Shown piece by piece: positions 8,889 through 63,839 of a stretch of 64,000 nt of DNA; the first letter of the stretch is position 1, and each line of letters begins with the position of its first letter. Below the pieces are notes generated by a model. The model did no database searches, was not told the DNA's origin, and saw only the letters and a program-made list of their open reading frames with translations. The stretch is taken from contig OX597838.1 in assembly GCA_951406725.2 (NCBI GenBank), forward strand, positions 14,632,001 to 14,696,000. The letters run 5' to 3'. This DNA comes from Octopus vulgaris. Its lineage: Eukaryota. The position numbers were made by a program, and so were the translations under genes.

Positions 8889-9041
8889 TTACTCCACTGG
8901 GCTCTCATATCCATTTGATGTTTTAAAAATCAGTGTCCTCCAGTCAGTTCTATCCTGGGCCGCTTCTTTCAGATTGGCTATGTCCATTCCGGTATCCCTC
9001 TTGGTGTCAAGCCAGCGGGTTCTTGGTCGACCTCTTCCTCT
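8889..9041 (-). mobile_element. RTE-clade LINE ORF C-terminal fragment
   Basis: Manual translation gives RGRGRPRTRWLDTKRDTGMDIANLKEAAQDRTDWRTL, matching the RTE/BovB-type RGRPRxRWxD...DRxxWR motif. Confidence 0.85.
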
Positions 9042-9043
9042 AT

Positions 9044-9158
9044 AAACCTCAGTCACATACCAATTATATGGTTATTTTCTAAATTTTTATATATAGACTA
9101 AATATAATATATAAAAATTTAGAAAATAACCATATAATAGTATGTGACCCCGAGGTTT
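9044..9158. repeat. Imperfect inverted repeat (~50 bp arms)
   Basis: attatatggttattttctaaatttttatatat pairs perfectly with its reverse complement across a ~12 nt loop. Confidence 0.9.
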
Positions 9159-9550
9159 GTAGTTGACCTACTGGCATAGTGTATCTAGGAAGAAGTATTA
9201 TATAACATGGTATGGTAAAGAACAAATAAAAATCTGGCTATTGTTTTAAGTAGGTCAGAGATCTGTGTAATTAAAGGGTCTGTCTAATAAGTAGCAGTGT
9301 TGTCATTCAGCTCAGTTTGATCCAGCAGACCTGTAATTGAAGATATTTCAGCCACGCTCATCCTGTTTAAATTTTTAGCCCCAAGTCATCTTTACTCCAG
9401 GGATTATCCTGTCTTGCTGTTTGAGCTCAGATTAGCTTTGGTCCAACAGATCTGCGACCAAAGACTTACTTTCCCGTCTGAACCATCCGATGTCATTCAT
9501 TGTGTTAGCAGTTCACTCCAGACATGACTAACCTGTCTTTCTATATTTAA

Positions 9551-15982: not shown

Positions 15983-16148
15983 TATATATCGCGGAGTGGT
16001 TGGCGTTAGGAAGGGCATCCAGCTGTAGAAACACTGCCAGATCAGACTGGAGCCTGGTGCAGCCCCTGGCTTCCCAGACCCCGGTCGAACCATCTAACCC
16101 GTGCTAGCGCGGAAAACAGACGTTAAACGATGATGATATATATATATA

Positions 16149-16293
16149 TATCTGTAAATTAATGTTACCATTATACATTATACCATAGTCAAGATAAAAC
16201 TCTGAGTTTAATGGTAACATATTAATTTACAGATAAATTTCCTCTATTTACATAATATTGAGGTCTCTTTCTTTTGTTATCTTACCGTTTTTA

Positions 16294-16298
<5 letters not shown>
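16149..16298. mobile_element. (TA)n-embedded short fold-back insert
   Basis: tatctgtaaattaatgttaccatta (16149-73) is inverted against 16209-16235. aaaactctgagttt resembles hammerhead stem III. A unique tail follows, then (TA)n. Confidence 0.5.
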
Positions 16299-16333
<35 letters not shown>

Positions 16334-17016: not shown

Positions 17017-17632
17017 CCATGATACCGATTAGATTTAGGAAAGCACTTGTCCAAAGCAGTTAAGAACTGGTTTATACAGTCATTATCTTTTCAGGGCTTC
17101 TCAGATTAGTAGAAGGTGGAGGAGGAAGTTATCCTCAAAGTCAATTACATCAACCCCAGTATGTAACTGGTATTTATTCTATCGACCCCCAGAAGTATGA
17201 AAGGCATAGTGTGAAGATGGACAAAAGCATTTCACCCGGCATGCTAATATTACTGCCAACTTGCAGCCTTACCAGAGGGTAATGTTAAGCAAGGAAATAG
17301 ATTAAGCTGGACAAGGGATAAAGTCTTATGATCTAAGAAGAAGAATTCAGAATGCAAAGAGTAGTCCTGTAGAGCATCTTGTCAAAAGCTAACAATTTCA
17401 CAACTACACAATCATGGAATGAGACTTTATTGATCTTCAAAGGAAAAACGATAAAGCTGATCTTGGTAGGATTTGAACTTGGAGTGCAGAGATCCAGAAC
17501 AAATATTGTAAGGCATTTTGCCTTACATTTCTTATAACTCTGCCAATTATATACCTATGTATAAACTGTCTGTATAAACCAGTTCTTTGCTGCTTTGGAC
17601 AAGTGTTTTCCTAAATCTAATTGGTATCATGG
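17017..17632. repeat. 63 bp inverted repeats separated by ~490 bp
   Basis: 17017-17079 vs 17570-17632, about 4 mismatches. Confidence 0.9.
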
Positions 17633-41867: not shown

Positions 41868-42022
41868 TATTTGTTCAGTAGCAGTCACTAAGGTTAGGGG
41901 CGAGCGGGGGCAGGAGGGAGCCTAACTTTTTGGTTTATATATATATATGTATATATAAACCAAAAAGTTAGGCTCCCTCCCGGCCCCGCTTGCCCCTAAC
42001 CTTAGTTACTGCTACTGAACAA

Positions 42023-43335: not shown

Positions 43336-43435
43336 ATGTTCTCAAGATCCTTAAATAGCTTTTTTCCTACATTGGATATGTCTATGTAAAACAACAACAT
43401 GTACATCTTTTATCTTTTACTGGTTTCAGTCAAAG

Positions 43436-44334
43436 GCTGGGGCCATGCTGGAGCACCACCTTTCAGTATGTTTGGGTCACATTTCTGTAAATGAGTTGGA
43501 CAGAGTCGCTCTTCCTTGTGCCGCCTGCTGCGATGTGTGACTTTACATTTCAGTCGGTTCGATTTCAGATCCTCATCAATTAATTGTCTCACCTTTGACG
43601 TTTCAAATCAGCTGGCTGGGGCCATGCTGGAGCACCACCTTTCAGTATGTTTGGGTCACGTTTCTGTAAATGAGTTGGACAGAGTCGCTCTTCCTTGTGC
43701 CTCCTGCTGCGATGTGTGACTTTTACATTTCAGTCGGTTCGATTTCAGATCCTCATCAATTAATTGTCTCACCTTTGACGTTTCAAATCAGCTGGCTGGG
43801 GCCATGCTGGAGCACCACCTTTCAGTATGTTTGGGTCACGTTTCTGTAAATGAGTTGGACAGAGTCGCTCTTCCTTGTGCCTCCTGCTGCGATGTGTGAC
43901 TTTTACATTTCAGTCGGTTCGATTTCAGATCCTCATCAATTAATTGTCTCACCTTTGATGTTTCAAATCAGCTGGCTGGGGCCATGCTGGAGCACCACCT
44001 TTCAGTATGTTTGGGTCACGTTTCTGTAAATGAGTTGGACAGAGTCGCTCTTCCTTGTGCCTCCTGCTGCGATGTGTGACTTTTACATTTCAGTCGGTTC
44101 GATTTCAGATCCTCATCAATTAATTGTCTCACCTTTGACGTTTCAAATCAGCTGGCTGGGGCCATGCTGGAGCACCACCTTTCAGTATGTTTGGGTCACG
44201 TTTCTGTAAATGAGTTGGACAGAGTCGCTCTTCCTTGTGCCTCCTGCTGCGATGTGTGACTTTTACATTTCAGTCGGTTCGATTTCAGATCCTCATCAAT
44301 TAATTGTCTCACCTTTGACGTTTCAAATCAGCTG
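43436..44334. repeat. Tandem array, 180 bp unit x5
   Basis: Units start at 43436, 43615, 43795, 43975 and 44155. Units 2-5 are essentially identical. Confidence 0.97.
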
Positions 44335-44750: not shown

Positions 44751-44789
<39 letters not shown>

Positions 44790-44793
<4 letters not shown>

Positions 44794-45293
44794 TAAGCAA
44801 TAAAGGGTTTAGCAACGAATTGCCTTACCACAGACCGAATTTAGAAATAGCAGTCAAAGAGTTATAGCTATTTCTTCTACTAAAAAGGGAGATCTCAGTA
44901 AAAAACACAGCAATTGGAAGGCAGACACAAACAGGTAAGAGAGAATGAATTGACGGCAATCTATCATACAATTTTAAGTTATCTACAATTTTAAGTTATC
45001 CGTAGATAACTTAAAATTGTATGATAGATTGCCGTCAATTCATTCTCTCTTACCTGTTTGTGTCTGCCTTCCAATTGCTGTGTTTTTTACTGAGATCTCC
45101 CTTTTAGTAGAAGAAATAGCTATAACTCTTTGACTGCTATTTCTAAATTCGGTCTGTGGTAAGGCAATTCGTTGCTAAACCCTTTATTGCTTAGTATTAC
45201 TTAAATTTTCCTCGAATGAGGCTTTTACATGCCGAAGACTACTTGGTGTAATTGATAATTATTCCAAATTAATTAATTTCACCCTTCATTATT

Positions 45294-45298
<5 letters not shown>
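44790..45298. mobile_element. (TA)n-embedded insert with ~196 bp fold-back inverted repeat plus unique tail
   Basis: 44790-44986 is a near-perfect reverse complement of 45002-45197. The spacer is 15 nt, followed by ~100 bp of unique tail and then (TA)n. Confidence 0.7.
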
Positions 45299-45330
<32 letters not shown>

Positions 45331-45334
<4 letters not shown>

Positions 45335-45537
45335 TGCTTTATTTAAAAGCAGCAGAAATTCAACAAAACCTGTTACTCGGAGTTTCACGTTCCCGTTTGT
45401 TGGATGAACGGGAACGTGAAACTCCAAGTAACAGGTTTTGTTGAATTTTCTGCTGCTTTTAAATAAAGCATATTACTCTACCCCTGGTATTTGAGTACTC
45501 TTTTTTCCACCTTGTTTCACATTTATGTGTTTACTCT

Positions 45538-45539
<2 letters not shown>
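45331..45539. mobile_element. (TA)n-embedded fold-back insert with hammerhead-like core in both arms
   Basis: Arms 45331-45397 and 45407-45474. GATGA-ACG-ggaa-CGT-GAAAC-tccaa-GTA-acagg at 45403-45435. ~65 bp unique tail, then (TA)n. Confidence 0.65.
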
Positions 45540-45585
<46 letters not shown>

Positions 45586-62645: not shown

Positions 62646-63425
62646 ATATATGATGATATATATTTGATAATAAGGAGAATGAAGAATTTGAACACTCTAA
62701 CTTTGGTTATTTCCAGTTAGTTTATTCATGGTAATTGTCTGACATGTGTTTCAGTTGCATTAACTGCATATTGTTGCATTTTTATGTGCAGTGATTTATG
62801 CATTATTAGTACAATCTCTTGAGGGTGTATAAGTATGACATTGTTCAAAGTCTACCAAAAAACGCACCATCTGAAGGAACCAGTCTTGTCATTTTACTAA
62901 GAGAAATTCAGCATCTGCCTGGATATTGTACCCCTTCTCTTACTATATGTGTGTCTGTACGTAGTTGTATGTATATGCAGAGTAGATGAAACCATGGCGA
63001 CTGAAGAAGGGGAATTTTCCTTGTGTTATTTGTCCTGTACTCTATTTTTTCGTTGTTTAAGAAAAATGTCCAGTTCCTTGGTTTTGCGTTTATGATTTCG
63101 TTTCTCATTGTGTTCGACGTTTTTTTTTGGTGTCCTGTACCCATATATGCGTGTATATATATATGTATGTAGAGGTAGGTACGTACATGTATGTATGTAT
63201 ATATGCATATGTTTTATTTATTAATTCATTGTATGTATATGCATATATATATTCATTTGTATGTACATGCTGAAATTGTGTGTGTGTCTGTGTGTTTTGC
63301 CTGTTTTGAATTTTGGGTGCTAGTTGTAAAATGTGCATCACTGTTATACAAGCAGTGTCCTTCCGTTTCCAGTCTTCTTCTTGAAGAAATATTACCCTGC
63401 TTTGAAATGTGTGAGGGTCGGTGAC

Positions 63426-63839
63426 AGGAAGGGCATTTGGCTGTAAAAAAATCTGCCTCAGTGAATTCCATCAGGAAGGGCATTTGGCTGTAAAAAATCA
63501 GCCTCGTTGAATTCCATCAGGAAGGGCATTTGGCTGTAAAAAATCAGCCTCGTTGAATTCCATCAGGAAGGGCATTTGGCTGTAAAAAATCAGACTCGTT
63601 GAATTCCATCAGGAAGGGCATTTGGCTGTAAAAAATCAGCCTCGTTGAATTCCATCAGGAAGGGCATTTGGCTGTAAAAATCAGCCTCAGTGAATTCCAT
63701 CAGGAAGGGCATTTGGCTGTAAAAAATCAGCCTCGTTGAATTCCATCAGGAAGGGCATTTGGCTGTAAAAAATCAGCCTCGTTGAATTCCATCAGGAAGG
63801 GCATTTGGCTGTAAAAAATCAGCCTCGTTGAATTCCATC
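63426..63839. repeat. Tandem array, 46 bp unit x9, inside a SINE
   Basis: aggaagggcatttggctgtaaaaaatcagcctcgttgaattccatc repeated head to tail with no spacers. Confidence 0.97.

Follow-up and report, generated by a model that had tools for sequence, protein, structure and literature searches.

Three inserts in a stretch of 64,000 nucleotides of Octopus vulgaris DNA (the window) belong to three separate repeat families, here A, B and C, and their layout is the known insertion shape of Penelope-like elements (PLEs), with a 5' inverted copy and a tail. The inserts of the window are themselves ordinary truncated copies. Across the families, the shape is probably the outcome of twin priming on one RNA, in which the turn between the two arms marks the 5' end of that RNA, and the peak of turns would most likely be a transcription start just before the hammerhead ribozyme. 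Thousands of young copies form a quantitative record, with two fixed starts, coupled arm ends and a shared boundary at the foot of the ribozyme.

Layout of the inserts and identity of the families

Positions marked + or - within the arms give the distance from the predicted hammerhead cut, taken from other copies of each family. The features are as follows:

16136..16151, no strand: (TA)n target, left of insert C
16152..16209, minus strand: inverted arm of family C, +47 to -12, reaching GAAAC beyond the predicted cut; it contains an internal duplication of 9 nt
16211..16296, plus strand: direct arm of family C with the tail, +20 to +109, PLE 3' end
16297..16329, no strand: (TA)n target, right of insert C
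44755..44792, no strand: (TA)n target, left of insert A
44793..44986, minus strand: inverted arm of family A, from the fixed start +198 to +2; that start is found in 38 inverted arms of 68 copies
44987..44998, no strand: junction of insert A, a short duplication (12-14 nt) of the inverted-arm end
44999..45297, plus strand: direct arm of family A, -2 to +298, beginning at the predicted GUC cut (between 45000 and 45001) and stopping at the fixed start +298
about 45198-45297, plus strand: tail of insert A, part of the direct arm
45298..45330, no strand: (TA)n tract common to inserts A and B
45331..45404, minus strand: inverted arm of family B, from the fixed start at about +42 to +48 into the hammerhead core (-30)
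about 45403..45539, plus strand: direct arm of family B, -28 to +108, with the rest of the core, stem II, GAAAC and the 3' arm of stem I, PLE 3' end
between 45430 and 45431, plus strand: predicted cut of insert B, within the direct arm
about 45475-45539, plus strand: tail of insert B, within the direct arm
45540..45582, no strand: (TA)n target, right of insert B

The shared order of (TA)n, inverted arm, direct arm and tail that the initial annotation had described was present in all three inserts. Self-reverse-complement scores were 747 for insert A and 231 for insert B, against at most 149 in the other examined gaps between (TA)n runs of the window. Insert C scored only 45 and is unremarkable taken alone, and its layout is accepted as real because family C copies show the same one. 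The inverted arm had been said to mirror the direct copy; in insert C it does not, and 16180-16209 has no partner in the direct arm. Insert B itself does turn within the hammerhead core, and its CCAACAA had been read as a decayed CCGACGA, a reading supported by CCGACGA being the commonest core of family B (32 of 87 arms). In insert A the turn coincides with the predicted cut site and the hammerhead core is missing.

In the window, a canonical hammerhead core pattern gave 2 matches against 3.07 expected, neither of them inside the inserts, and no hammerhead was among the 150 matches listed of the 219 obtained in an Rfam scan. An ORF homology search found no PLE ORF in the window. In longer copies, predicted type I hammerhead motifs were present in all three families, in line with the earlier proposal.

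Other repeats were also observed in the window, namely a 180-bp unit present five times with 99% likeness (43435-44334, 450 bp left of insert A), a 46-bp unit present nine times with 96% likeness (63425-63839), an inverted repeat giving a G+C-rich hairpin centred on a TA run (41900-41990), an inverted repeat giving an A+T-rich hairpin (9040-9162), and MITE-like inverted arms about 470 bp apart (17017-17086 and 17561-17632).

Family A is a 596-bp tandem repeat with a hammerhead in each unit, occurring in arrays of at least three units, and no PLE ORF match was found inside the unit. Its hammerhead core is intact and matched Rfam Hammerhead_1 with an E value of 0.0067 and 21.2 bits, under the cut-off of 34. 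By its sequence, family A appears retrozyme-like, since it is made of tandem non-coding units that each hold a type I hammerhead. In family A locus flanks, two more hammerhead motifs were observed, with a CTGAAGA core and a long stem II, unlike family A.

Families B and C are, judging from their sequences, the 3' ends of PLEs with Hydra-clade motifs, and linked PLE ORFs (RT plus GIY-YIG), suggested earlier as a check, were found upstream on the same strand in both. The last 230 nt of family C are about 87% identical to an autonomous sister element with a unit of 2589 bp and an intact 717-codon frame, and in a family C copy of the window type (L078) an ORF end about 900 nt upstream is 83-87% identical to that frame. 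For family B, a related ORF lies about 1.2 kb upstream of the hammerhead in 14 of 17 long loci, which were chosen for length. By eye, against the motif list in section 11 of PMC8557442, RWK, DKT, CxCX5C, CxxC and CxH are present and CCHH is absent in the autonomous protein, and CxCX5C, CxxC and CxH alone were seen in the family B protein. The Pfam match of the autonomous ORF to GIY-YIG was weak (E 0.011, below the cut-off), the whole protein gave no match in Pfam and NCBIfam, and no sequence relative of the ORF was found in the PDB. The hammerheads of B and C share, by eye, the core, GAAAC-TCAGA-GTH and the stems; their motifs gave no hammerhead match in Rfam, and core position 4 is mostly C, which is non-canonical, with T in 30 of 87 B cores.

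The searched genome comprised 2.8 Gb in 227 contigs, where exact patterns of tail plus TA had 4885 matches for B, 1163 for C, 1312 for the autonomous element and 159 for A, and reversed control patterns for the A, B and C tails had 0. From these matches, 70 copies each of A, B and C and 63 of the autonomous element were sampled in genome order, with a few adjacent places skipped, and 11 C rows with alignments extending into (TA)n, as well as 2 A rows that were duplicates, were left out before counting. Since the patterns demand an unmutated tail joined to TA, the sample is biased to young copies whose direct arm carries the tail. For complex autonomous inserts, coding was done by hand, in some cases without an inverted end, and the initial family searches, which favoured long direct arms, were excluded from the turn statistics. 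A large and very young burst of a Hydra-type PLE, the autonomous element, was also observed (31816 candidates, with 125 scored matches at 95-100% identity); many of its copies, with loci L163-L173 as examples, hold intact 717-codon frames and tandem units.

Two fixed start sites at (TA)n tracts

The inverted arms begin, and the direct arms end, at two fixed starts, which lie at +198 and +298 in A, +42 and +108 in B, +47 and +109 in C, and +43 and +104 in the autonomous element, respectively. An inverted arm at the second start was found in 41 of 68 A, 47 of 70 B, 29 of 59 C and 40 of 63 autonomous copies. The proposed targeting of (TA)n was supported at the outer end of the inverted arm, an end that was not selected for TA, where (TA)3 adjoins in 37/38 A, 47/47 B and 23/27 C cases against a background of 0.08-0.11. 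The tail can sit on either arm, and reciprocal layouts exist (L389, L395 and L401; also L168 and L169). The two fixed starts match the two internal sites, bounding the tail, from which a purified PLE cuts and extends both strands as described in PMC11167929.

Different PLE or retrozyme families adjoin at one tract in the (TA)n of 45298-45330 and at loci L020, L087, L168 and L460, and existing (TA)n inserts seem to seed further inserts. A motif resembling TAATTTC(A)CCCTT...TTA(A)CGG was also observed both at the outer start of family A (L058, +270 to +298) and upstream of a C-type hammerhead (L164/L087, -107 to -84), and may serve in promoter function or bind a protein.

Arm ends, their coupling and alternative readings

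In 23 of 41 A, 17 of 47 B, 15 of 29 C and 15 of 40 autonomous pairs, the 5' reach of the inverted arm exceeded that of the direct arm by over 10 nt, and insert C of the window is such an unequal-arm case. The arms did not overlap at all, leaving no palindrome, in 9 A, 3 B, 2 C and 2 autonomous pairs, and the junctions show short homology, blunt joining or inserted bases. Since the inverted arm often extends further 5', the arms would be two separately primed cDNAs, and the fold-back of the tail-bearing arm put forward in the initial annotation is not upheld.

Breakpoints relative to the hammerhead were non-random in B and C, as had been anticipated, but the ribozyme core is not the site, and a turn at the core cannot be kept as a rule. 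In family B, 20 of 47 inverted arms stop at -40 to -52, and in family C, 17 of 29 stop at -52 to -80, intervals that correspond in the predicted folds to the 5' foot of hammerhead stem I. In the autonomous element, the interval -52 to -80 holds the ends of 15 of the 63 direct and 8 of the 40 inverted arms, a rate some ten times that of the sequence to each side. Expressed as stops per kb at risk, in bins set after B and C had been seen, the autonomous foot reaches 13.1 for direct and 8.9 for inverted arms, all other bins lying at 0.4-2.9, and the foot has 100 against 0.8-31 for B inverted arms and 48 against 1-21 for C inverted arms, with binomial p values of 1e-9 to 1e-13. The autonomous peak was repeated in two batches (7/30 and 8/33), with every junction different, and several B inserts have a -44/-44 junction in common and perhaps do not count as independent. 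In C and the autonomous element the peak spreads over 20-30 nt. Among the 68 copies of family A, no arm stopped at the stem I foot, and the cut showed no excess of stops.

At the foot of stem I, a pyrimidine-rich stretch with a terminal, acceptor-like AG is present in B, C and the autonomous element, with one B subfamily lacking the AG. A splice boundary was rejected as the cause of the peak, since many arms continue 4-25 nt past the AG along genomic sequence, and a palindrome was rejected because it is absent in the autonomous element.

The ends of the two arms are coupled. Among the 33 autonomous pairs in which both arms reach -30, both arms were short in 10 (short/short) and long in 23 (long/long), and no pair was mixed (p 1e-8); one mixed insert was found outside the ordered sample (L173, inverted -66, direct -2222). 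A spacing of 30 nt or less between the arm ends occurred in 18 of 40 autonomous pairs (3.7 when shuffled) and still in 5 of 23 pairs of long arms (0.7 when shuffled); in family A, 17 of 41 pairs had their ends 15 nt or less apart (3.1 when shuffled). In family B, the same stem II variant occurred on both arms in 11/11 pairs against 4.5 expected, two further B sites being uninformative for concordance (21/21 against 19.1 and 27/29 against 23.5); later gene conversion could be an alternative source of such concordance. The coupled ends point to one shared RNA 5' end, since a stall of each arm on its own would yield mixed inserts. At the second, upstream hammerhead foot of long autonomous copies, a hand count gave 1 stop in 12 passes, so that long copies would need another RNA pool, tandem or circular.

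Under twin priming, the inserts would be 5'-truncated copies of two PLEs and one hammerhead repeat in (TA)n tracts. A Hydra-type RT/GIY-YIG protein would cut both strands, both ends of the cut target would serve as primers for reverse transcription from two fixed sites within one RNA, and the resulting two cDNAs would be joined head to head via a template jump or short homology, the turn being the place where both had ended. The peak would correspond to the 5' end of an uncut transcript starting just upstream of the hammerhead, short inserts would be run-off, 'strong-stop-like' copies, and long inserts would derive from tandem or circular RNA. Family A may have been moved in trans from tandem or circular RNA, with no boundary at its hammerhead. 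More tentatively, the primary transcript may carry the start sites at its 5' end. Uncut linear RNA would then give short run-off palindromes only, the hammerhead would cut and circularise RNA to allow full-length and tandem copies from the same start sites, and the split between short/short and long/long pairs would be a record of both pools.

Putative promoter motifs resembling the consensus of an initiator, a TATA box and CCAAT lie at plausible distances in B and some C variants, and the autonomous variant that is commonest has no TATA-like box. At the 5' junctions inspected by eye, there was no extra G of the kind a cap would leave. In the Penelope of D. virilis, as reported in PMC2377424 and PMC4209133, transcription begins within the pLTR, 46 bp ahead of an intron that ends at the 5' end of helix I, and once spliced the transcript has its start a short way before the hammerhead. 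The position of that intron end resembles that of the AG-ending stretch described above for B, C and the autonomous element.

The main rival reading, though a rather unlikely one, is that the boundary under twin priming is set by the hammerhead fold, which would block 5'-3' RNA decay at the stem I foot or stall a coupled RT dimer after stem I is copied; this is a modified form of the ribozyme-structure idea of the initial annotation. The peak does coincide with the stem I foot in two unrelated PLEs, stem I is short in family A, where the peak is missing, a few joints rely on homology within stem I (L277, L348, L371 and L380), and the stop rate within the hammerhead body is raised in B and C (13-14 per kb). 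However, in the autonomous element this rate is 1.6-1.7 per kb, equal to background, and the passage of the foot by both arms in 23 of 33 pairs, with none mixed, excludes an independent stall of each arm.

Self-priming, in which one cDNA (or an antisense RNA, the proposal of PMC3846280) folds back and copies itself and later central deletions make the arms unequal, would account for the frequent near-symmetric joints (the 17/41 of A) and for the palindromic junctions TGGCCA in C and CTAG in B, and a fold-back step by the tail-less arm could still join the two cDNAs. As the sole mechanism it is largely refuted, and we regard it as improbable: the second start is fixed at (TA)n and reciprocal layouts exist, inverted arms hold sequence missing from the direct arm, some inserts lack any overlap, and the autonomous peak occurs without TGGCCA.

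That ribozyme cutting sets the turns, the 5' end of cut RNA being the template end, is highly improbable. It would fit the turn of window insert A at the predicted cut, which may be a chance event, and the 4 of 59 C copies and the single copy of 63 in the autonomous element whose direct arm starts at +1, but the cut has 1.5-3.4 stops per kb against 2.9-6.3 in flanking bins in A and 1.0-1.4 in the autonomous element, some C cases are accounted for by stem I homology, and uncut RNA is described as the main in vitro substrate in PMC11167929. An assembly or long-read fold-back artefact has a negligible chance of being the explanation: the exact junction of insert B was unbridged among the contig pieces listed from 4 public short-read runs, but contigs from 4/4 runs contained such inverted-to-direct joints for other copies, along with ends at each of the two start sites, and starts are fixed per family, junctions are unique and arms differ by CpG decay.

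Relation to known elements and meaning

In L1 twin priming, two primers on one RNA give a 5' inversion. The inserts here differ from this in that both starts are fixed and the arms usually overlap, giving a palindrome.

Hydra-clade PLEs, as described by Craig et al. 2021 (PMC8557442), share a unit below 3 kb, a single ORF with a C-terminal GIY-YIG, the same motifs without CCHH, insertion into (TA)n, and an inverted 5'-truncated copy with the tail at either end; their tails are given as 30-40 nt, compared with 61-100 nt here, and a further difference is C at core position 4 in the C types and most B copies here. Poseidon PAc of Anolis (Frangieh et al. 2024, PMC11167929) belongs to another PLE clade and is reported to cut and extend both strands, with two internal RT starts 3' of the hammerhead that bound the tail and with uncut RNA as main substrate, as would apply here.

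Family A resembles the metazoan non-LTR retrozymes described in PMC7229834 and bioRxiv 10.64898/2026.07.22.740005, which are tandem non-coding units with one type I hammerhead each and for which a PLE link was proposed in that work. Their units are given as 150-450 bp, against 596 bp and a long stem II in family A, and the PLE-type insertion with two starts and an inverted arm is shown here. The minimal PLE hammerheads of Cervera and de la Pena 2014 (PMC4209133) lie in the pLTR and have a tiny helix III, as the predicted motifs here would, and differ from the C4 core variant and the unpaired base before GAAA found here; dual hammerhead motifs 100-700 bp apart on opposite strands had also been noted in PLEs in that study.

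Recently active Penelope families were named in an octopus in PMC13282606, with hammerheads not mentioned in the portion of its text consulted. Earlier publications describe this layout and its tail, as well as the targeting of (TA)n and the presence of hammerheads in pLTRs, and the supplements of PMC8557442 may list these families. Among the papers listed in searches of the open literature, none was seen to treat turn points or twin priming in PLEs, or a coupled stop at the stem foot. The origin of the head-to-head inverted ends of PLEs and the role of the hammerhead are stated as open in the passages concerned of PMC8557442, PMC3846280 and PMC11167929.

The record left by the copies favours twin priming on one RNA over self-priming, and the twin-priming reading predicts RNA 5' ends to within about 20 nt. 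If true, twin-priming run-off would likely explain the long-known and so far unexplained shape of PLE insertions.
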